DNA of 45,899 nt from a virus: positions 1 to 45,899 of the IMG/VR virus record IMGVR_UViG_3300045988_015578, one strand, 5' to 3'. The translations under genes and the position numbers were made by a program. Positions within the stretch are counted from its first letter, which is position 1, and the number at the start of each line of letters is the position of its first letter. Shown here in pieces: positions 2,916 through 37,054 of the stretch. The notes beneath the pieces were generated by a model. That model was not told the DNA's origin, made no database searches, and saw only the letters and a program-made list of their open reading frames with translations.

Positions 2916-3175
2916 TCAGAAGTCAGAATAAGGAAGTTTTAGCTACACTTGAACTTTTATTCGATATCGAAGTTTCGGGTGGAGTAATAAGTGCAAGAAG
3001 AGATATGAGTTGGTGCTGCTTGCTCGGAGAATATTCCACCAAAGCAAAAGCCATGAAGGTACTGGATATGATTCAGGAAGCCTATGAGGAATATGAAACT
3101 GAAAGAATCTATAAAGAGGGCGTATTCAAGATCAGGACGTTTCAGATGCCAGAAGATTCGGAGGTGGAAGTATGA
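2909..3175 (+). CDS. hypothetical protein (88 aa)
   Basis: ORF with an overlapping start and stop. Confidence 0.5.
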   Translation: MLIRSQNKEVLATLELLFDIEVSGGVISARRDMSWCCLLGEYSTKAKAMKVLDMIQEAYEEYETERIYKEGVFKIRTFQMPEDSEVEV

Positions 3176-3477
3176 AATACAGAAAGAAACCAGTTGTAAT
3201 TGATGCAGTACAGTGGACTGGTACAAATAAGCAAGAAATATTTGATTTTCTGACAAATGGCAATTGTCCAGAGGAGTATATGACATCTGATTTTCCGATT
3301 GTATCCGATAACTTCTATATCGACAAATGGAAGGTTCCGGGTGGTCTGATTATTAAGACACTTGAGGGCGAACATCTGGCGAATATTGGTGATTATATCA
3401 TCCGCGGTGTTCGCGGTGAATTTTATCCGTGTAAGCCAGATATATTCAGAGAAACTTATGAGGAGGTGGAAGTATGA
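3172..3477 (+). CDS. PGDYG-like small phage protein
   Basis: MKYRKKPVVIDAVQW at the N-terminus and IGDYII...FYPCKPDIFRETYE near the C-terminus are typical of this phage family. Confidence 0.6.
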   Translation: MKYRKKPVVIDAVQWTGTNKQEIFDFLTNGNCPEEYMTSDFPIVSDNFYIDKWKVPGGLIIKTLEGEHLANIGDYIIRGVRGEFYPCKPDIFRETYEEVEV

Positions 3478-3827
3478 GCCATATCAAAGACAGATTATCG
3501 GATTATCATGATTTCATGAAGAAACTTGTGGATGACCACCAGATGGTTTTAGCAAGTGATGTTCTGGAAATGATAGAACAGATTAAGGATGATCTGGAAC
3601 AGGACGAGAAAGAAAATGGTTGGATTCCTGTCAGTGAGAGATTACCGGAAGAATCCGATTACTATATGGCATGCATTCATAATGAAATTTTAAATAAATA
3701 CTACTGCCGAAGTGAGTGGTTCTCTATTAACAATAATTATTATGGCGAATTAGTGTGGATTGATTTGAAATCATATGAAAAAGTTGTGGCATGGAGGTCA
3801 CTTCCAGAACCATATAAGGAGGACTGA
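3474..3827 (+). CDS. DUF551-like phage protein
   Basis: The GWIPVSERLPEE motif is characteristic of DUF551-type proteins. Confidence 0.55.
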   Translation: MSHIKDRLSDYHDFMKKLVDDHQMVLASDVLEMIEQIKDDLEQDEKENGWIPVSERLPEESDYYMACIHNEILNKYYCRSEWFSINNNYYGELVWIDLKSYEKVVAWRSLPEPYKED

Positions 3828-6553: not shown

Positions 6554-7197
6554 ATTCCATAATTGTTTATTGGGATGATATTATTGATAAGTTTGATACT
6601 TATCAAATAATAGATAAATTTGTTTATGATTCGTTTACGATGCTTCTTAGTCCTAATGAATATGCTCAAACAGGGTTGATTTTTGAAATAGCAACTAATA
6701 ACGGGAATCCTAATGAATGCTATTGCAAAGCCATCTTCGTAGACTTAGAAAAAGAAAAAGAGGTATACATAGGAGAATTTAATTGGAGTGTGCATGGTGA
6801 ATATACTACTGTAGAAATATACGAAAAAGATAGAGAATACGAGGAAGCTTATGCAAACTGGGCGGGTAATATATATGCAATAATGTCTTATATAATGACA
6901 ACTGAAAGAAAAAGAGTGGAAAAGCAAAGACCCATACAAAAGGTAAGCTCGAAAAAGAAATATAAAAATAAAAGTGAAAATAAGAGCATCTATCTTCTTT
7001 CGGAAATTGTGGATTATGTAAATGATAATGGCTTGCTGATAAAACCAAGTGGAAATCACAAAATAACTTGTCCTTGTTGGAGCGTAAGAGGACATTACAG
7101 AACGTACAAGAGCGGTAAGAAAGTATTTGTAAAGTCTTTCGAGAAAGGGAAAGAACGTGGAAAAGTAGCACCAAAACAGCATGTTTATACGATTTGA
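6550..7197 (+). CDS. hypothetical protein in a markedly AT-rich segment, with a basic Cys/His C-terminus (215 aa)
   Basis: Long ORF whose base composition is visibly more AT-rich than its neighbours. C-terminus reads ITCPCWSVRGHYRTYKSGKK. Confidence 0.6.
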   Translation: MNSIIVYWDDIIDKFDTYQIIDKFVYDSFTMLLSPNEYAQTGLIFEIATNNGNPNECYCKAIFVDLEKEKEVYIGEFNWSVHGEYTTVEIYEKDREYEEAYANWAGNIYAIMSYIMTTERKRVEKQRPIQKVSSKKKYKNKSENKSIYLLSEIVDYVNDNGLLIKPSGNHKITCPCWSVRGHYRTYKSGKKVFVKSFEKGKERGKVAPKQHVYTI

Positions 7198-7822: not shown

Positions 7823-9445
7823 ATGGACTTAACGCCTAAACAGAAAGCGTTTGCAGATGAATATATCAAGAATGGCGGAAATGCATCTGATGCCGCGAGG
7901 AAAGCCGGATACGCACCTAAGAGCGCTGATGTAATAGGGCGCGAGAACTTACGGAAACCTACGATTTCTGCATATATAGCCGAAAAACAGTCTCTCATCG
8001 AAAAACAAAAAGGCACTGACATCATGTCACTGGCAGAAATTCAGCAACGCCGTTCTATGATCGCAAGAGGTGAGCTGACTGATTCATTCGGATTCGCCCC
8101 GGACTTCTCCGACCAGCTGAAATCTATGAATGATCTGGAAAAGGCATTAAAAATTAAACAAGAGCAGGAAGAAAAGAAAGCAGCAGAGGAAGCTGCTAGA
8201 AATGCGAAGCCGTACCACATGGACCTGTACAACATTCCTGATTGCTTTCACCGGGCTATTAGAGATATTCGAGATAAGGAACATCTGGAGTATGTATTTA
8301 AGGGCGGACGTGGCTCCACGAAATCAACCACTGTTGGAATGACAATTGTGGAGCTGATGAAAAACAACCATGATATTCATGCAGTTGTTTGCCGTAAGGT
8401 CGGGAACACCATTAAAGATTCTGTGTATAACAAAATCAAATGGGCTATTGGAAAGCAGGAATTTACAGAAGAATTCGATTCTAAGTTATCACCTATGGAG
8501 ATTACGCTAAAAGCAACCGGACAAAAGATATACTTCCGTGGTGCTGATGACCCTGACAAAATTAAATCTATCAACCCTGAGTTCGGCTATATCGGCATTC
8601 TCTGGTTCGAGGAATTAGATCAGTTCGCAGGTACTGAGGAAATTCGTAAGATTGAGCAGTCTGCGATTCGTGGCGGCAACCTTGCATGGATATTTAAGAG
8701 CTTCAATCCGCCAAAAACAATGAATAACTGGGCTAATAAGTATGTTCTTGAACCGAAAGAGAACAGAATAGTTCATTCATCAACTTACTTGGACGTGCCA
8801 AAAGGATGGCTGGGGCAGCCATTTATTGACGAAGCAGAGCATCTGAAAGAAGTCAATCCAAACGCTTACGAACATGAATATATGGGAATTGCGAATGGAA
8901 ACGGCGGTAATGTATTTGAATATTTGGAAATCAGAGATATTACAGATGAAGAAATCAGTCACATGGACAAAATATTTCAGGGGTGTGACTGGGGATTTTT
9001 CCCTGATCCGTATGCTTTTATTCGTTTGTATTACAATCATAACACTGAAAAGATATATCTCATTGATGAAATTTACGAAAATAAATGGAGTAATAGGAAA
9101 TCAGCAGACGAGATTCTAAAAAGAAAATATGATGATTATACTATTACTTGCGATTCTGCGGAACCTAAATCAATCAATGATTATAGAGACTTTGGACTTC
9201 CAGCAAGGGGCGCAATAAAAGGGCCTGGAAGTGTGGAGTATTCTATGAAATGGCTTCAGACAAGGACTATCGTTATTGACCCCAAAAGAACGCCTAATGC
9301 TTACAAAGAGTTTTCAGAGTACGAATATGAAAGAGACAAAGATGGAAACGTTATAAGTGGATATCCTGACGAGAACAACCATTTAGTCGATGCCTGCAGA
9401 TACGCAACAGAATCATTGTGGAGAAGAAGGGGTAACAATGCATAA
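7823..9445 (+). CDS. terL: terminase: small-subunit-like HTH domain fused to a PBSX-type large subunit
   Basis: The N-terminal ~130 aa (LTPKQKAFADEYIKNGGNASDAARKAGY) look like a Terminase_2-type TerS. The rest has Walker A GGRGSTKS and PBSX-like TerL motifs. There is no stop between the two parts. Confidence 0.85.
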   Translation: MDLTPKQKAFADEYIKNGGNASDAARKAGYAPKSADVIGRENLRKPTISAYIAEKQSLIEKQKGTDIMSLAEIQQRRSMIARGELTDSFGFAPDFSDQLKSMNDLEKALKIKQEQEEKKAAEEAARNAKPYHMDLYNIPDCFHRAIRDIRDKEHLEYVFKGGRGSTKSTTVGMTIVELMKNNHDIHAVVCRKVGNTIKDSVYNKIKWAIGKQEFTEEFDSKLSPMEITLKATGQKIYFRGADDPDKIKSINPEFGYIGILWFEELDQFAGTEEIRKIEQSAIRGGNLAWIFKSFNPPKTMNNWANKYVLEPKENRIVHSSTYLDVPKGWLGQPFIDEAEHLKEVNPNAYEHEYMGIANGNGGNVFEYLEIRDITDEEISHMDKIFQGCDWGFFPDPYAFIRLYYNHNTEKIYLIDEIYENKWSNRKSADEILKRKYDDYTITCDSAEPKSINDYRDFGLPARGAIKGPGSVEYSMKWLQTRTIVIDPKRTPNAYKEFSEYEYERDKDGNVISGYPDENNHLVDACRYATESLWRRRGNNA

Positions 9446-12122: not shown

Positions 12123-12505
12123 TGGACAGATGGGAATATTATAATCCGAATCCTGCTGGGAATCGAGTCGGAGATTGTGCTGTCCGGGCAATATGCAAAG
12201 CAACCGGCTTTGATTGGGAAACGGTATTTACCGGACTGATGGTGCAGGCGTGCGCGCTGTCAGATATGCCGAGTGCAAATTATGTCTGGGGAGCGTATCT
12301 CTACAAGCATGGATACAGGCGCAAACTGATAGAACAGTCAGAACGATATATCTATACAGTCAACGACTTTTGCACAGACCATCCGACAGGCACGTACATT
12401 CTCTGCATAGATGGCCATGTGGTGACAGTACAAGATGGTAAATATTATGATACATGGAATAGCGGAAACGAAATACCGATTTATTATTGGGAAAAAAATG
12501 GATAA
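12122..12505 (+). CDS. conserved phage protein, possible papain-like Cys/His peptidase fold
   Basis: The pattern GDCAVRAI...GHVVTV...DTWNSG suggests a Cys-His-Asp/Asn arrangement. The fold assignment is inference. Confidence 0.55.
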   Translation: MDRWEYYNPNPAGNRVGDCAVRAICKATGFDWETVFTGLMVQACALSDMPSANYVWGAYLYKHGYRRKLIEQSERYIYTVNDFCTDHPTGTYILCIDGHVVTVQDGKYYDTWNSGNEIPIYYWEKNG

Positions 12506-12515
12506 ATATCCACTA

Positions 12516-13070
12516 TTATGTTTTATTGTATTTCCACACAAAACCTTTGTGAGTTCGACGTTCACCACGACAGCAACGACTGATGCTATCTTTTCGACCG
12601 TTTACGTGGTCTGCGGCATCTTCTGCGCAACTCCACTCAGCGATAAAATGATTGTTTAAGTCATATTGATAAACAACTTTTGCTCTTGGACTGTTTCCTC
12701 TCTTATAATTTCCATGAGGAGGGACAGAAGCGGAGCGCAATCCTGTATTTATTGCATGAAAAGTGTTTTCTTGTTTCGTGACCCATTCAAGATTATCAAC
12801 AGTATTGTTTTTCTTGTTCCCGTCAATATGATTCACTACTTCTTTTTGTTCCACGTTCGGAATAAATGCCTCTGCAACAAGGCGGTGAACGAGATAGTTC
12901 TTACGTTTGTAATTAACAACAAGTGTTACTCTATCGTAACCATCGTTTTCAAAAGGAGTCAAATACTTGCATCCTTTATTGTAATTTCTCCTTGCACTAA
13001 TAATATTGCCAAGATTGCTTATTTTGTATAATCCTTCATAACCGACAACATCTTTCCAAATTTCTTGCAT
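12516..13070 (-). CDS. HNH homing endonuclease (NUMOD4 + HNH_3 type)
   Basis: WKDVVGYEGLYKISNLGNI is NUMOD4-like and VNHIDGNKKNNTVDNLEW is an HNH motif. The gene is free-standing on the opposite strand. Confidence 0.85.
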   Translation of the reverse strand: MQEIWKDVVGYEGLYKISNLGNIISARRNYNKGCKYLTPFENDGYDRVTLVVNYKRKNYLVHRLVAEAFIPNVEQKEVVNHIDGNKKNNTVDNLEWVTKQENTFHAINTGLRSASVPPHGNYKRGNSPRAKVVYQYDLNNHFIAEWSCAEDAADHVNGRKDSISRCCRGERRTHKGFVWKYNKT

Positions 13071-13213
13071 AAAAATAACACCTGTCCTTTCAGTGTGCGT
13101 GTCCTATTGATAAATGTACGGAAATCTCTAGGACATGAGACTTTCGGGAGCTACCCTATCCGTACACAAATATTATATCACAAATCAATGAAATATTAAA
13201 GAGGTATATCAAT

Positions 13214-13519
13214 ATGCATATTATTGAAGCAATACAAACAATTCTATCAATTTGTGGTGGCATTTCTATCATAGGAGGGGCAGCAGCTGTAATCCTTAAG
13301 TGGATTGCTCCGGCATTCCGACTCAACAAGCGAGTTGAGACACTGGAAGAACATGATAAGCGAGATTACGAGAGCCTTCAGAGGATTGCAGAGCGTGATT
13401 CATTGATTCTGGAAGTGTTGTCAACCATGTTAGACAGCCAGATCAGTGGGAATAATGTTGAGGAATTAAAAAAAACAAAACAGAAGCTTACAAATTATCT
13501 TGCGCAGAATCAACGTTAG
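13214..13519 (+). CDS. single-pass membrane protein with a coiled coil (BhlA/UviB-like architecture)
   Basis: An N-terminal TM helix (ILSICGGISIIGGAAAVILKWI) is followed by a charged helical region. Confidence 0.55.
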   Translation: MHIIEAIQTILSICGGISIIGGAAAVILKWIAPAFRLNKRVETLEEHDKRDYESLQRIAERDSLILEVLSTMLDSQISGNNVEELKKTKQKLTNYLAQNQR

Positions 13520-13539
13520 CATTAATAAGGGGTATGCTC

Positions 13540-13740
13540 ATGAAATTATATGTGTTCACAAAGAAAGATATAGACAGGTTCTTGATAGAGTGTAATTTCA
13601 CACCAGACGAAGAAAGACTGTTCCGGTTGAGATGCCAGGAGCGCACTCTTGAATACTGCGCTGAACAGATGAACGTGAGTATATCCACGGCGAAACGATT
13701 AAGCCGGAGGGTGAACAATAAAATAATCAAAGTGTGCTAA
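13540..13740 (+). CDS. small sigma-70 region-4-like HTH protein
   Basis: LFRLRCQERTLEYCAEQMNVSISTAKRLSRRVNNKI matches the sigma region-4 HTH pattern. The AAGGGG RBS favours ATG 13540. Confidence 0.55.
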   Translation: MKLYVFTKKDIDRFLIECNFTPDEERLFRLRCQERTLEYCAEQMNVSISTAKRLSRRVNNKIIKVC

Positions 13741-13770
13741 AAGGAGAGGCAATTTGCCCCTCCTTCTTTT
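13741..13770. terminator. bidirectional terminator between convergent genes
   Basis: Stem aaggagaggc/gcccctcctt (one mismatch) with T-runs on both strands. Confidence 0.65.
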
Positions 13771-14503
13771 ATACAAAATCTTCTTTTACAACTCTCTCGA
13801 GAAGATTGACTACATACTCTGGAGGATTGCGTTTACCACCCTCCCAGTTCTCAATACTCCTTTTAGGAATACCATATTTTTCAGAAAAAGCTTGCTGTGT
13901 AAGTCCAGATAACGTTCTGATTTTGTGAAAATCAAGAGGATCTGAAGAAACTTTTTTAGGAAACACATCCTCTTCCTTTACCTGATATGTGAAGAATCCC
14001 ATCGAGGATGGAAAAATTCTAAAATAAAATTTTTCATCGTCATCTTCTTCTATCCAGGTTTGCTGTAAAAATATTTTCGGACACCATTCATCTAATGCAA
14101 ACTTTTCATCTGAATCAGAGTAAACAACATAAGAACATAAATTTCCCGTATCTGATTTCATTCTCTTCATTTCGTTATAGATGAATCTAGTCCTGGCATA
14201 TCTGACTATGCTATACGCTTGTTCTGTTCTGAGTTCTGGGAATAAAGCTTCGATTTGTTTATAAATCTTATTCCACAGACATGCATGGTGTTTACTATCT
14301 AATTCAACTGGTATGTCGATATAACCGCTGCTACGAACTGACAAAAATCGGTACACTACATCAATTATCTCCTGATTTCTAACCGGAGGAATTAATTCTG
14401 TATCATCTGGAAAATCAAATGGCAAAAGGTTTGATTTTTCCTGATTCTCGAGATCATGTTTTACCATGCTCAAGAACTCCTTATATCCGTATTCTTTCAG
14501 CAT
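13769..14503 (-). CDS. protein with a C-terminal XRE-type HTH and an unknown ~190-aa N-terminal domain
   Basis: C-terminus reads IRTLSGLTQQAFSEKYGIPKRSIENWEGGKRNPPEYVVNLL. A GGAGGT RBS inside the upstream gene indicates translational coupling. Confidence 0.75.
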   Translation of the reverse strand: MLKEYGYKEFLSMVKHDLENQEKSNLLPFDFPDDTELIPPVRNQEIIDVVYRFLSVRSSGYIDIPVELDSKHHACLWNKIYKQIEALFPELRTEQAYSIVRYARTRFIYNEMKRMKSDTGNLCSYVVYSDSDEKFALDEWCPKIFLQQTWIEEDDDEKFYFRIFPSSMGFFTYQVKEEDVFPKKVSSDPLDFHKIRTLSGLTQQAFSEKYGIPKRSIENWEGGKRNPPEYVVNLLERVVKEDFV

Positions 14504-14504
14504 C

Positions 14505-14948
14505 TTATTTTACCTCCATCTTTTCTTTGTAATCATTCAGAGCTTCCTTGAATTTTCTTTCGCAAATATTGTTTTCACAATCAATATCACTATTTAACTC
14601 AACGTCTAATTCTCTTGGACTGTAAGCACGATAACGGTTTTCAATAAACCATTTTGCTTCTTTGATCTCATAAATAGTTTCCATGGCTTTTTTCATGCGC
14701 TCCGGCATTTTTTTTCTGCCTTTAGATTCATGAAAATTAATGCAACTGTTTCCATACTCGATCATCTTCTTACGGATATCCTCAGCCCAGGCAATCTGTT
14801 TTGGGCTGCCAACCAGTTCTGGTAATTCTTTACACATATCTTTTGCTTCCTTCCATGCTTTCTTGAGACCGGAGGAAATTGTCATTGCAGATTTCTTAAC
14901 CAGCTCCCATGCTCTTTTCATTATTACTGATAAATTATATTTCTTCAT
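14505..14948 (-). CDS. helical K/E-rich protein of unknown function (147 aa)
   Basis: AAGGAGG lies 7 nt upstream of ATG 14948. The track start 15113 runs into the promoter region. Confidence 0.7.
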   Translation of the reverse strand: MKKYNLSVIMKRAWELVKKSAMTISSGLKKAWKEAKDMCKELPELVGSPKQIAWAEDIRKKMIEYGNSCINFHESKGRKKMPERMKKAMETIYEIKEAKWFIENRYRAYSPRELDVELNSDIDCENNICERKFKEALNDYKEKMEVK

Positions 14949-14990
14949 GTCTTTTTCCTCCTTAGATTCCTTGTTCCTCTTTCTGATATT

Positions 14991-15019
14991 ATAATACCAC
15001 TCAACGGGTGATATGTCAA
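14991..15019 (-). promoter_or_regulatory. near-consensus sigma-A promoter for the antisense two-gene operon
   Basis: On the - strand: TTGACA, a 17-nt spacer, then TATTAT. Two CAAAAAAGT repeats lie upstream. Confidence 0.7.
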
Positions 15020-15096
15020 CACTTTTTTGATACTTTTTTGAACTTCTTGGATTAATACTTATGTGTAAAAATATAATCAGAAAGGTGGTGTGTAAG

Positions 15097-15834: not shown

Positions 15835-16614
15835 ATGGATGGAAATTATAGTTTAGCAGATATTGCCGCTGCTACTGGAAACGGTAGAAATAATGACGGC
15901 ATGTTTGGTGGAGATGGTAGCTGGTGGATTATTGTTTTATTCATTTTTGCTTTCTTCGGATGGGGAAACAACGGCTGGGGCAATAATGGAAACGGCGGCG
16001 GATATGTAGCCACAGCAGCTACTCAGGCAGACATTCAGAGAGGATTTGACAACTCCGCAGTGATCAGCAAGCTTGACGGAATCAATAGTGGTCTGTGTGA
16101 TGGCTTCTATGCCATGAATAATGGTATGCTTACCGGATTCAATGGAATCAACACAAACATCATGCAGACTGGCTTCGGTATCCAGCAGGCTATTAATGCT
16201 GACACTGTAGCTAATATGCAGAATACCAATGCGCTCCAGGCACAGCTTGCAAACTGCTGCTGTGAAACAAGGGAAGCAATCCAGGGTGTAAACTACAATA
16301 TGGCACAGAATACCTGTGCATTGCAGAACACCATGAACAGCAACACAAGAGATATTATCGACAGCCAGAATGCAGGGACAAGAGCGATTCTTGACTATCT
16401 CTGCAATGAAAAGATTTCTAACTTGCAGGCTGAAAACAATGACCTCAGACGTGCTGCATCTCAGGATCGCCAGAGTGCACTTCTCACAACTGCAATGGCT
16501 TCACAGACACAGCAGCTTATTAATGCGATTAATCCGGCACCGATTCCGGCATATCAGGTTCCTAACCCGAACACATATTACGGATGCGGATGCAACACCG
16601 GATGTAATTGTTAA
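15835..16614 (+). CDS. G/N/W-rich membrane-anchored protein with a Cys-rich C-terminus (cassette gene C)
   Basis: AAAGGAG RBS. Features: a WWIIVLFIFAFFGWGNNGWGNNGNGGG segment, an internal CCCE, and the C-terminus YYGCGCNTGCNC. Confidence 0.7.
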   Translation: MDGNYSLADIAAATGNGRNNDGMFGGDGSWWIIVLFIFAFFGWGNNGWGNNGNGGGYVATAATQADIQRGFDNSAVISKLDGINSGLCDGFYAMNNGMLTGFNGINTNIMQTGFGIQQAINADTVANMQNTNALQAQLANCCCETREAIQGVNYNMAQNTCALQNTMNSNTRDIIDSQNAGTRAILDYLCNEKISNLQAENNDLRRAASQDRQSALLTTAMASQTQQLINAINPAPIPAYQVPNPNTYYGCGCNTGCNC

Positions 16615-34543: not shown

Positions 34544-34567
34544 GGTTAGTCACAGTTAGTCACAAAC
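34544..34567. repeat. arm-type-site candidate: tandem TTAGTCACA x2, overlapping the integrase stop codon
   Basis: GGTTAGTCACAGTTAGTCACAAAC also encodes the integrase C-terminus ...FVTNCD*. Confidence 0.6.
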
Positions 34568-35721
34568 GGAACTTTTATTTTCTCTATTTCTTCCCGGAGT
34601 TCTTTCAGGGTTCTATGACCGTACACAGCGTTCGTAACATCGTTCCCGAACGAATGACCCAGCATCCTCTTCCGGTCGTTCTCCCGGACGCCGTATTTTT
34701 CGCACAGGGTAGAAAAGGTGTGCCGGCAATCGTGCGGCGTGTGCTTCGGGTTGCCGATTATCCCTAATCGTTCTAGTGTAGGGTAGAACAGGGCGTTTCG
34801 GTGTTGCGTCTGGGAATAGATACAGAGCTTGCCGTTTTGCGTCAGGACTTTGTTCTTCGCAAACTCGTATATGGCCGAGTGGATTGGAACAATTCTGTCT
34901 TTTCCGGCTGCGGTCTTAATGCCGCCTTGAAAGTATTTTTCTTCGAGATTAGTCGTAAGCTTCAGAACTTCGCCGATTCTCCAGCCGGAGTAGCACATGA
35001 TCAGAATGAGCTGTACTTCTGGATCGTCGGCGTTCTGCCAGAGGACCCGAAGCTCCAAATCAGAAAACGGTGTCCCGTGCTCGACGTCATCTTTTGTTTT
35101 GACAGAAACATACAGCGCCTTGTTTTCCGTGACTATCTCTGAGTAGATTGCGAATTTATACATCTGCTTAAAAAGCATCAGAATCGTGTTTAAACTCTGC
35201 GTTTTGAGCGGGCAGTCATCAATAACCTTTTGCAGGTCCGGTGCTTTCAAGTCTTCAAATGCACGATTATGCAAAGGCTTGCTGTTAAGATACCCGCAGT
35301 GATATGCGTTCTTTGAAGACTTCGACAGATTAGTGTCTTCCGGAAACTTCCATGATATGAATTTTTCATATACTTCTGAGAACGTCAATTTGTGCGTTTC
35401 CGGGTGCTTTTCCTCTGTGCCCTTAAATGTATTGTAGTCCGACAAAATACGGCTTATAAGGGCATCTGCGTCCGTTGTGGGGGCAATCTCAAGTTCTTTT
35501 TCCATACCCGGCTTGTACGTCCCGGCTTTGTATGCTGTGAGAACAGCGAATCCTTTCAGATAGTCGTCAACGTAGCAGATCGCAGGCGGACGAACTGCTT
35601 TTCCTGTTGCGTCCAGCGTTGCCGGTGGGTGCACTGCATAGCAGTTTCTTCGACCCTTGCCGAGATAGCGGATAGACCCGAAGCTATTCGGCAATTTTGG
35701 GTACTTCTTTCTTTTTGCCAT
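34546..35721 (-). CDS. int: tyrosine integrase
   Basis: The catalytic pattern ...WRIGE...HDCRHTF...LGHS...Y, plus a basic N-terminal arm-binding-like domain. Confidence 0.9.
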   Translation of the reverse strand: MAKRKKYPKLPNSFGSIRYLGKGRRNCYAVHPPATLDATGKAVRPPAICYVDDYLKGFAVLTAYKAGTYKPGMEKELEIAPTTDADALISRILSDYNTFKGTEEKHPETHKLTFSEVYEKFISWKFPEDTNLSKSSKNAYHCGYLNSKPLHNRAFEDLKAPDLQKVIDDCPLKTQSLNTILMLFKQMYKFAIYSEIVTENKALYVSVKTKDDVEHGTPFSDLELRVLWQNADDPEVQLILIMCYSGWRIGEVLKLTTNLEEKYFQGGIKTAAGKDRIVPIHSAIYEFAKNKVLTQNGKLCIYSQTQHRNALFYPTLERLGIIGNPKHTPHDCRHTFSTLCEKYGVRENDRKRMLGHSFGNDVTNAVYGHRTLKELREEIEKIKVPFVTNCD

Positions 35722-35776: not shown

Positions 35777-36346
35777 TTACTCAATCTCGTCAATGTCAAA
35801 AGAATATCCAAGGACTTCTCCAACATCTGTGCATTTTCCTTTTAATGTTACTTTATCGCCTTTGGTAAGAGATGCTACCTTTGATTTTTGCTCGTCATTT
35901 TTGATATTACACTGTACGCCAATGATTTCAAAGTCGCCGTCGGCTGTGAGACTGATGTATTTTCCGGAAGCGTCAATGTTACTGAGATTTCCGGTGATTT
36001 CGAGATATTTGCCTTTGTATTTATCAGATGCGCCCATTGCATTACTATCAAGATCGGACATCATATCGTTAACGGAAACGGCAGTGTACTCGATCGGAGC
36101 AGCTTCTTCTTTTGATTTAGCAGCAGTTTCTTTCTTTTCTGAAGAAGTAGCGGTTGCTGCGCTTTTATCTGATTCTGAATCACTTTCGCCAGCTACAGCT
36201 CCGATGATGGCTCCGACAAGGATTATCAGCACAACCCATTTGAACTTTCCACCTTTTAATTTCTTCCGGCACTGCGGGCAGACTTTAGCATCTGCCGGAA
36301 TCTCTGTTTTACAATATTTGCATTTCTTTGTTTTCTCTTCGCTCAT
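35777..36346 (-). CDS. zinc-ribbon / single-TM / extracytoplasmic OB-fold-like protein
   Basis: CKYC...CPQC, a TM helix WVVLIILVGAIIGAVAG, and a C-terminal beta-rich domain. Its GGAGGG RBS lies inside the last codons of the LytTR gene. Confidence 0.75.
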   Translation of the reverse strand: MSEEKTKKCKYCKTEIPADAKVCPQCRKKLKGGKFKWVVLIILVGAIIGAVAGESDSESDKSAATATSSEKKETAAKSKEEAAPIEYTAVSVNDMMSDLDSNAMGASDKYKGKYLEITGNLSNIDASGKYISLTADGDFEIIGVQCNIKNDEQKSKVASLTKGDKVTLKGKCTDVGEVLGYSFDIDEIE

Positions 36347-36349
36347 GCT

Positions 36350-37054
36350 TTATTTCCCTCCAATGACGTAGTTTTCATATTTTTCTCTTATTTTCGCAAG
36401 TTCTCTTTGCCTGATCGGGACGATCGCGCCAGATACCATCGTAAAAAAATAGCTTACTTCGCTTACCTCGTCCATATTAACTATATAGCTCTGGTGGCAG
36501 CGCAAAAATCTTCCGTCAAGACTCTTTTCGATATCGTTGAGCTTTCCTCGTTCCTTGTGTGATATTCCGCACGTGCAATGGATCATTATGTATTTGTTCT
36601 GGCTTTCGATGTATTCAATATGCCGGAATTCAGCTCTGTGAAAGTAGTCCTTGTTCTTGATAGTAAGCGTTTTTTCACGGATATTTTCAAGAGTTTGCTC
36701 AACAACTGAATACATTCTTCCATGCTCAGATCCTTTAATGATATAATGAACCGGTAGCACATCAAGTGCATCAAATACATATTCTTTGCGTTCTGTCCAA
36801 AAAGTGATATTTCCATAGTATCCGATTTTTCTTAATTTTTTGGCAATCTCTATGCCATTTTCTCCGTTAATGGAGACATCAAGAATTATTATGTCATACC
36901 ATTCACCATCTGAAACATCGTCAATCAAAGGCTTTCCGCTGGTGTAGGTAGTTAATGTATATCCACCATCACCATGCTCTTTTAAATATCGGTCAATGCT
37001 ACTTTTGAAAATCTCAATTCGTAAATTATCATCGTCACAAATCGCAATTTTCAT
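36350..37054 (-). CDS. LytR/AlgR-family response regulator (receiver + LytTR DNA-binding domain)
   Basis: MKIAICDDD...IIILDV...YIIKG is a receiver domain. The C-terminal half is LytTR-like (...IEYIES....I...). Confidence 0.85.
   Translation of the reverse strand: MKIAICDDDNLRIEIFKSSIDRYLKEHGDGGYTLTTYTSGKPLIDDVSDGEWYDIIILDVSINGENGIEIAKKLRKIGYYGNITFWTERKEYVFDALDVLPVHYIIKGSEHGRMYSVVEQTLENIREKTLTIKNKDYFHRAEFRHIEYIESQNKYIMIHCTCGISHKERGKLNDIEKSLDGRFLRCHQSYIVNMDEVSEVSYFFTMVSGAIVPIRQRELAKIREKYENYVIGGK

Follow-up and report, generated by a model that had tools for sequence, protein, structure and literature searches.

The 45,899-nucleotide stretch of viral DNA analyzed here (IMG/VR record IMGVR_UViG_3300045988_015578, positions 1 to 45,899; hereafter the window) is a temperate Blautia prophage from the human gut, approximately 46 kb in length, and carries among its head genes a minus-strand cassette made up of a strong promoter, a gene for a 147-amino acid (aa) protein (gene 1) and a gene for a 244-aa protein that ends in a helix-turn-helix (HTH) DNA-binding domain (gene 2). 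In the reading that we favor, to which we assign a probability of about 0.58, this cassette is a mobile, self-regulated anti-defense operon of the type formed by anti-CRISPR (acr; CRISPR, clusters of regularly interspaced short palindromic repeats) and anti-CRISPR-associated (aca) genes, lying antisense in a hotspot of the head region. The parts of this reading differ in strength. That the cassette is an autoregulated accessory element can be held with considerable confidence, an anti-defense role has the odds somewhat in its favor, and a role directed specifically against type I CRISPR is put forward tentatively. The resemblance to acr-aca loci of an effector gene followed by an HTH autoregulator, which the original prediction had drawn from the letters of the window, is borne out by a conserved palindromic operator, by homologues of the anti-CRISPR AcrIC5 in sister loci and by a gene 1 domain distantly related to the anti-CRISPR AcrIE7, and an anti-defense locus of a known kind is hence a credible description of the cassette. 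Its features are the following.

13739-15063, minus strand: whole inserted cassette, bounded by blastn and by comparison of its junctions with the relative L001 (MT835739.1)
15021-15040, minus strand: two phased CAAAAAAGT A-tracts 5' of the -35 element, at 15040-15032 and 15029-15021, read from the sequence
14991-15019, minus strand: sigma-70-type promoter, TTGACA, 17-nt spacer and TATTAT with a TG extension (11/12 in the promoter scan; kept in 83 copies)
14995-15013, minus strand: 19-bp palindromic operator TATCACCCGTTGAGTGGTA, which fills the spacer and overlaps the -10 element (alignment of upstream regions; single copy in the window)
14957-14963, minus strand: ribosome-binding site AAGGAGG of gene 1, read from the sequence, within a 5' untranslated region (5'UTR) conserved across loci
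14505-14948, minus strand: gene 1, 147 aa, basic and all-helical (open reading frame; approximately 525 homologues; AlphaFold2 model)
14838-14948, minus strand: N-module of gene 1, aa 1-37, MKKYNLSVIMKRAWELVKK...AWKEAK, missing from natural core-only homologues
14619-14816, minus strand: AcrIE7-N-like domain of gene 1, aa 45-110, GSPKQIAWAEDIR ... EAKWFIENR (hmmsearch of the PDB; hhalign)
14503-13769, minus strand: gene 2, 244 aa (open reading frame)
13946-14503, minus strand: N-terminal domain of gene 2, aa 1-186, an acidic orphan alpha/beta domain with natural HTH-less forms of 186 aa
13769-13945, minus strand: C-terminal XRE/YiaG-type HTH of gene 2, aa 187-244 plus stop codon (Pfam HTH_3; Foldseek)
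13739-13767, either strand: 13-bp GC-rich hairpin (RNA folding), a plausible terminator for both the cassette and the convergent plus-strand gene at 13534-13740

The promoter, the two genes, the HTH and the hairpin announced for the minus strand of 13741-15045 were all found where described, and the view of them as an accessory insert among head genes is upheld by comparison with related phages. The flanking genes lie on the plus strand and encode the terminase, the portal, minor capsid protein 2, the scaffold and the major capsid protein; the cassette runs antisense to these late genes within the head-gene region, and the phage is identified as temperate by an integrase encoded at 34546-35721. 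In blastn comparisons against four related sequences (L001-L004), the human-gut relative L001 (MT835739.1) is 84–87% identical to the window on both sides of the cassette and has 57 bp instead of positions 13739-15063, and L002 carries there a different cargo of 1.5 kb whose promoter and HTH are the same as in the window. Across all the sequence collected, the promoter and its operator occur in 83 copies, of which approximately 62 lie in this same hotspot, between the gene for a 68-aa protein resembling sigma-70 region 4 (sigma-r4-like) and a phrog_21718 gene. The pair formed by gene 1 and gene 2 is itself seen in three contexts: in the same head-region hotspot (L011-13), at a prophage end next to holin and amidase genes and host genes in Blautia massiliensis (L005-7), and, in HTH-less form, within a long co-directional array of small genes (L008-10). 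The isolate Ruminococcus sp. AM36-2AA presents the array-type context in an unrelated element, where the gene 1 core is 100% identical to aa 38-147 of the window protein. Species-representative genomes yielded a single locus with the gene 2 profile and no match to the promoter/operator pattern. The two genes travel together in close relatives, with a gene 1 homologue directly upstream of gene 2 in 23/23 cases; this pairing is strict yet not obligate, because remote members of the gene 2 N-domain family have no gene 1-like neighbor and remote relatives of gene 1 have no gene 2. The presence/absence polymorphism and the swapping of cargo indicate, as judged from sequence comparison, that the cassette is a mobile insert in a variable hotspot. 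At the empty site of L001 (positions 7000-7030), the retained sequence 'GATACTTTTTGGATAC' is similar to the region of A-tract repeats in the cassette promoter and may be a deletion scar.

The near-consensus minus-strand promoter with two upstream repeats was present as anticipated, scoring 11/12 with CAAAAAAGT in two copies. Its -35 element, TTGACA, occupies 15019-15014 and its -10 element, TATTAT, 14996-14991, preceded by TG. This is the top match within 12-16.5 kb and, since the three remaining 11/12 matches of the whole-window scan all fall at 37-39.5 kb, within the lysogeny/early control region, it is the sole strong sigma-70-type promoter of the structural module. The CAAAAAAGT tracts are kept in the main hotspot group and are replaced by different A/T tracts in diverged loci. 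They were considered as a specific regulator site and rejected, given that diverged loci preserve A/T tracts and not sequence, and they probably constitute an UP-like A-tract element for that same reason. For the 19-bp operator, alignment of upstream regions gives the consensus TAYCACNC-ATT-GNGTGRTA, and the palindrome is perfect in one of the Blautia massiliensis loci (L005), where it reads TACCACGC ATT GCGTGGTA. The window holds one copy (two matches in 0/100 shuffles), and the exact 30-bp promoter/operator was found again in 67 viral contigs. Among 47 distinct regions the CAC and GTG of the two arms are invariant, and positions 7 and 13 change to G and C jointly in 9/9 cases and never singly. 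This 30-bp core persists where flanks and 5'UTRs cannot be aligned, and the operator is present at every HTH-bearing locus and missing upstream of the HTH-less pairs. From this covariation with the HTH and between its own arms, we infer that the operator is the binding site of a gene 2 HTH dimer.

At the other end of the cassette, the 13739-13767 hairpin folds with -19.7 kcal/mol on the minus strand (z = -4.8) and -16.8 kcal/mol on the plus strand (z = -3.9), and 0/200 shuffles fold as well on either strand. It was not flagged in a simple scan for consensus terminators, which is attributable to the short U-run on the minus strand. The bidirectional terminator of the original prediction is therefore plausible in that a strong hairpin forms on both strands, with the plus strand better supported and the minus-strand part weakened by that U-run.

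The promoter/operator drives very different genes. The cargo under the 83 copies falls into at least eight gene sets, listed here in order of transcription.

Set 1 (window type): gene 1, then the fusion of the gene 2 N-domain and the HTH
Set 2: 119 aa, then an HTH protein of 55-59 aa
Set 3: N-module-106 aa, then 97 aa
Set 4: 89 aa, then a 125-aa HTH protein
Set 5: 73 or 88 aa, then an HTH protein of 110 or 128 aa
Set 6: 185 aa, then a 112-aa HTH protein
Set 7: 98 aa, 179 aa and 97 aa, then the HTH
Set 8: 66 aa, then a 115-aa HTH protein

The HTH family is encoded in cis at 66/83 copies, and the remaining copies are either truncated at a contig end or stand second in a tandem beside an HTH-bearing cassette. 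Its module, IPKRSIENWExGKRxPPxYV, has more than 2000 relatives, mainly standalone proteins of 55-70 aa on phage contigs of approximately 45 kb. In sister loci, standalone HTHs of 55-59 aa occupy the 3' end of the operon, as the gene 2 HTH does. Fusions of the module to several cargo families, with either partner first, occur as well; an AcrIC5 domain (P0048) and the 97-aa family (P0041) are among these partners. The link to a validated anti-CRISPR comes from this material. The 66-aa first gene of one set encodes a protein homologous to AcrIC5 over its full length (PF22147, E = 4.8e-23; its 81.5 bits exceed the cut-off of 27), and two further matches to the same family, at 35.2 bits for a 67-aa cargo protein and at 30.6 bits, complete those in sister loci and in P0048, in which AcrIC5 is fused to an HTH that shares 63% identity with the gene 2 HTH. 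Membership of AcrIC5 was also considered for the window proteins and rejected, as neither gene 1 nor gene 2 has a match to PF22147. Two further observations concern the sister loci. A tandem second promoter/operator precedes HTH-less N-module-106-aa and 97-aa genes in L002 (2467-3195) and in six other loci (L015, L016, L029, L030, L055 and L079), an arrangement that implies regulation in trans by the HTH of the neighboring cassette. The 89-aa first gene of several loci (L018, L024, L044 and others) and a 73-aa one (L019), under the same promoter, encode very acidic proteins with the look of DNA mimics, and neither has a family match in Pfam or NCBIfam (PHROGs were scanned for the 89-aa protein only).

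The distribution of operator and cargo bears on the possibility that the cassette is an accessory regulatory or host-modulating moron outside any defense conflict, for instance as a DNA-binding pair adjusting the transcription of the phage or its host. Gene 2 does carry a DNA-binding HTH and gene 1 a putative nucleic acid-binding domain, as such a role would require. The single operator copy in the 45.9-kb window nevertheless leaves no other phage promoter evident as a target, the cassette is dispensable in close relatives, and hypervariable cargo beside a conserved regulator is a signature of conflict genes, all of which makes this explanation very improbable.

Gene 1 provides the second connection to anti-CRISPRs. 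The predicted 147-aa helical protein corresponds to the open reading frame at 14948-14505, and its AlphaFold2 model consists of helices throughout (predicted local distance difference test, pLDDT, 83.6). A 202-aa form starting at TTG was rejected because it overlaps the promoter and the 5'UTR, and the ATG at 14948 is preferred because it has a consensus ribosome-binding site and because homologues begin either there or at Met38. The protein is basic (isoelectric point, pI, 9.2). Its approximately 525 homologues, like those of gene 2, mark the gene as genuine. When searched against the PDB, the whole gene 1 profile had AcrIE7 of Pseudomonas aeruginosa as its sole match (E about 0.003), and a domain-only profile built from 25 diverse family members was significant, in an hmmsearch of the whole PDB, only for four AcrIE7 sequences (E = 1.3e-6, over AcrIE7 aa 2-53). 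The full AcrIE7 sequence was taken from a Pseudomonas plasmid, where it adjoins acrF1; hhalign aligned the gene 1 domain with AcrIE7 at 96.8% probability (E = 2.6e-10). Aligned in this way, aa 45-110 of gene 1 correspond to aa 1-53 of AcrIE7, including GS-x-KQ-x-x-WA and A-x-x-x-I-x-NR, and K50 and R105 of gene 1 align with K6 and R49 of AcrIE7, whose mutation abolishes both the binding of single-stranded DNA (ssDNA) and the protection from Cas3 (PMC12002350). K50 is nearly invariant in the gene 1 family, R105 lies within a conserved FIxNR motif, and the domain as a whole is basic (pI 9.6). The original prediction had called the first gene unknown; it can now be credited with a domain homologous to AcrIE7. 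A search of the phage collection with the AcrIE7 peptide gave no match, PHROGs assigned gene 1 and the other cargo to families of unknown function only, and AcrIE7 itself matches no PHROG, so that this resource offers no bridge between the two. Against BFVD, the best Foldseek match of the gene 1 model was an uncharacterized homologue.

Upstream of this domain, the N-module forms a separable helical hairpin that is common to other cargo proteins. The profile of the AcrIIA3 family, NF033948, is matched by 10/65 members bearing on this module at E ≤ 0.01 (best E = 8e-5). The best score among gene 1 relatives, 21.7 bits, is to be set against a cut-off of 70 and covers only the N-terminal ~50 positions, and gene 1 itself, at E = 0.97 and far under the cut-off, was rejected as an AcrIIA3 member. 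The likeness of the N-module to the N-terminus of this family thus offers a weak lead only. A distant member of the gene 1 family was also noticed at the head of a four-gene operon between integrase and lysis genes (P0112 locus; L092 and L093). The last gene of that operon encodes a 59-aa MazE/AbrB-like DNA-binding protein, and the locus could be an analogous cassette with another regulator fold.

The kinship with AcrIE7 leaves the target of an anti-defense cassette to be weighed. Gene 1 might generally shield ssDNA or another nucleic acid intermediate, and the cassette might then be directed at restriction-modification or another nuclease system and not at CRISPR. Its architecture would be identical to that of an acr-aca operon, AcrIE7 binds free ssDNA in vitro without sequence or Cas specificity (PMC12002350), and several sister cargoes have the strong acidity and DNA-mimic look that anti-restriction proteins share. 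We consider a non-CRISPR target improbable on the grounds that the sole cargo belonging to a curated family is AcrIC5 and that the sole gene 1 homologue of known function is an anti-CRISPR.

Gene 2 starts one nucleotide past the stop codon of gene 1 (TAAgATG), with a GGAGG within the end of gene 1, and Pfam HTH_3 is matched at aa 194-238 (E = 1.1e-5, over the gathering score), in agreement with the translationally coupled 244-aa protein with a C-terminal XRE-type HTH that had been described. The family is narrow. It comprises 48 matches, whose source names suggest Blautia massiliensis, with 40 homologues of the full protein or of its N-domain at 53–100% identity. The N-domain is acidic (pI 4.9), and an exhaustive profile hidden Markov model search retrieved 15 representatives among 1.84 billion proteins, none of them with a known domain; one remote member also ends in the same HTH and the others do not. 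No match to the N-domain was found in Pfam, the PDB or Foldseek. The structure prediction recommended earlier for this domain did produce a model, albeit one of low confidence (pLDDT 67) and with no Foldseek match. We regard the domain as a candidate second effector or partner of gene 1. On a 74-kb plasmid-like contig, a remote homologue (L087 and L088, positions 3001-3624) is encoded directly downstream of ParA, ParB and a RelB/RHH-like gene, and the domain is therefore not confined to phages. Only the HTH of the gene 2 model matches the PDB in Foldseek, where it aligns with the HTH domains of HigA2, XRE and ImmR proteins (root-mean-square deviation 1.6-2.2), and the HTH profile recovers Atu1735, DBP48, Orf20, HigA2 and the 434 repressor. 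PADLOC returned generic HTH matches and no defense-system component.

On the acr-aca reading, the promoter would fire immediately on infection and produce a burst of both proteins, after which the gene 2 HTH would form a dimer at the palindrome, which lies between the -35 and -10 elements, and reduce the promoter to a low level. Low-level expression would persist in the lysogen, and antisense interference with late transcription would be limited. Gene 1, the candidate inhibitor, would probably bind a nucleic acid intermediate, such as the non-target strand of the R-loop, and would probably block a nuclease, for example the Cas3 of type I-C systems, which are common in Blautia. In gene 2, the acidic N-domain would be a second inhibitor fused to its own regulator, or else a partner of gene 1. 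The cassette would probably be an acr-aca-type operon with an effector-regulator fusion, targeting the type I-C CRISPR of Blautia. The genus carries type I-C CRISPR; in B. producta, 162 spacers target the bacterium's own prophages and no known Acr is present (PMC7708048; see also PMC11737165). Orthologues of AcrIC5 are present in the Firmicutes and have broad activity against type I-C systems (PMC7913775).

Several features of known acr-aca operons, including acrIF1-aca1 of JBD30, acrIF11-aca7 and acrIIA25.1-aca11, recur in the cassette and its relatives, namely a strong constitutive promoter, variable small effectors and then a conserved HTH. In Mu-like Pseudomonas phages the acr-aca loci lie in the structural-gene region, as the cassette does. 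Aca proteins bind, as HTH dimers, to inverted repeats that overlap the -35 and -10 elements, a layout matched by the HTH and palindrome described here. The repeat bound by Aca7 also measures 19 bp and covers the -35/-10 region of a promoter with 17-nt spacing, and Aca11 governs two duplicated neighboring promoters, as the tandem copies in sister loci would require of their single regulator (PMC12658196). The HTH at the operon end, the promoter inverted repeat and the diverse linked cargo are thus common to both, and the link of the regulator to a validated Acr family is made through AcrIC5 in sister loci, outside the window. AcrIC5 loci of gut Firmicutes and Actinobacteria phages share with the cassette, in sister phages, the same promoter, operator and HTH family, whereas the window itself has no AcrIC5 gene. 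AcrIC5 was reported by AcaFinder to co-localize, in data from gut phages, with 10 newly predicted families of Aca (PMC9765179). Unlike in known acr-aca operons, the HTH has no sequence relation to solved Aca proteins and is fused behind a 186-aa orphan domain, and the cassette is antisense to late genes. Fusions of Acr and Aca functions also exist, and gene 2 resembles them in joining an effector-side domain and an HTH in one polypeptide. AcrIIA1 combines an effector domain with an HTH and represses its own promoter; gene 2 differs from it in the reversed order, with the effector side N-terminal and the HTH C-terminal, and in the orphan nature of its N-domain. AcrIF24 is likewise an effector-regulator fusion that represses its own promoter (PMC9001735). 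With respect to AcrIE7 (PDB 9KJB, 9N3X, 9L2Q and 9LA6), gene 1 retains the equivalents of K6 and R49, but has a helical insert 12-15 aa longer, a different C-terminus and an additional 37-aa N-module, and the host of the window belongs to a different phylum and probably carries type I-C rather than type I-E systems. Two elements of the locus are new, namely a family of Firmicutes phage proteins with a domain distantly related to AcrIE7 and the fusion of an orphan domain to an Aca-like HTH.

A number of results weigh against this interpretation. Neither gene 1 nor gene 2 reaches the threshold of a curated Acr family in Pfam or NCBIfam. Only aa 1-53 of the 106 aa of AcrIE7 align with gene 1, the C-terminal half having no counterpart, and although AcrIE7 is a seven-helix bundle and the gene 1 model is all-helical, Foldseek of that model against the PDB gave nothing below E = 2 and did not recover AcrIE7. 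AlphaFold models of AcrIE7 deviate from its crystal structure according to the authors of that structure (PMC12002350). Given that the homology ends midway through AcrIE7 and that the structural match is missing, gene 1 is best described as sharing a domain with AcrIE7 and not as a member of its family. This domain is widespread among small proteins of phages, where it may serve as a generic module for nucleic acid binding. Guilt by association has a known false-positive rate, and the CRISPR type of the host was taken from the literature on the genus and not from the actual host genome. The HTH is closest to XRE/YiaG and to antitoxin HTHs of the HigA2/MqsA type, and at E < 0.1 its profile found no PDB chain named as Aca (Aca1, 2, 7, 10 or 11). 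Lastly, toxin-antitoxin systems also present the layout seen here, in which a basic protein comes first and an acidic one, ending in an HTH, second, the two being paired in 23/23 cases among close relatives.

This layout underlies the alternative in which the cassette benefits the lysogen as a toxin-antitoxin, abortive-infection or superinfection-exclusion module. In its toxin-antitoxin version, gene 1 would be a basic nucleic acid-binding toxin and gene 2 an acidic, autoregulating antitoxin, in the toxin-first order of MqsRA and HigBA. As in MqsRA and HigBA2, a small upstream protein is followed by one that carries an XRE-type HTH at its C-terminus, the promoter has an operator, and the two genes, of which the toxin-like one leads, are coupled. 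The family-level matches of the HTH, which include the antitoxins MqsA and HigA2, the contrast between the pI values of gene 1 (9.2) and of the gene 2 N-domain (4.9), the strict pairing in close relatives and the location of the Blautia massiliensis pair beside host genes at a prophage end, a typical moron position, are all in keeping with it. A DNA-binding, autoregulatory antitoxin fits the locus without discriminating between the two explanations, because Aca systems share this feature. Other results speak against such a module. No toxin fold or family, and no defense-system match, was detected for gene 1 in Pfam, NCBIfam, PADLOC or, as regards the fold, Foldseek, and its domain is homologous to a non-toxic anti-CRISPR. 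The cargo linked to the regulator is variable, comprises sets of three or four genes and includes anti-CRISPR families, with AcrIC5 homologues under the same promoter, operator and HTH. The pair also occurs HTH-less inside long operons, and remote homologues of either partner are found without the other. The original prediction had held that the locus could equally be a toxin-antitoxin or exclusion module, which the AcrIC5 sister loci and the diversity of cargo show to have been too generous: we consider such a module unlikely and prefer the acr-aca-type operon.

A broader and more doubtful proposal extends the acr-aca interpretation to the entire hotspot. The interval between the sigma-r4-like and phrog_21718 genes in ~45-kb phages of Blautia and other Lachnospiraceae might be an anti-CRISPR island, with one previously uncharacterized Aca-like HTH and operator and some ten new Acr families, in which the window pair would be a new two-component inhibitor of type I-C systems, composed of an AcrIE7-like ssDNA/R-loop binder and of the acidic orphan domain with the regulator fused to it. 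A pair of this kind could account for the tolerance of Blautia to massive self-targeting of its prophages in the absence of a known Acr. Anti-CRISPRs against the type I-C systems of the dominant gut Firmicutes are almost unknown, and if the acr-aca reading is true, the locus would be a source of new inhibitors of type I-C systems and would serve as a guilt-by-association anchor in the search for anti-defense genes of gut phages. The signature formed by TTGACW-TAYCACNCATTGNGTGRTA-TTATAAT and the IPKRSIENWExGKRxPPxYV HTH already retrieves 83 cassettes with about ten cargo families. The analysis furthermore provides a first link of the ssDNA-binding N-terminal domain of AcrIE7 to a large family of Firmicutes phage proteins, and the locus family offers a natural series of effector-regulator fusions. 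Should the anti-defense role prove false, the cassette would still be a clean case of a hypervariable, autoregulated moron hotspot in a structural operon.

Several other genes of the window deserve mention. The conserved left flank of the hotspot (13534-13740, plus strand) is the 68-aa sigma-70 region 4-like protein, assigned to phrog_1190 ('RNA polymerase sigma factor'), which may be a late-transcription factor. Further upstream, an HNH/NUMOD homing endonuclease gene (12516-13070, minus strand) is a second insertion, independent of the cassette; L001, L002 and L003 carry approximately 40 bp instead of positions 12496-13242. In the head region, a 259-aa Gly/Asn/Cys-rich protein with the C-terminus GCGCNTGCNC (15835-16614, plus strand) has no Pfam match, and a single terminase polypeptide (7823-9445, plus strand) combines Terminase_2, the small subunit, at aa 3-110 with Terminase_3 and Terminase_3C of the large subunit. 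Beside the integrase, positions 35777-37054 of the minus strand encode a zinc-ribbon/OB-fold (tRNA_anti-like) protein and a LytTR-type response regulator, an unusual cargo for a prophage.

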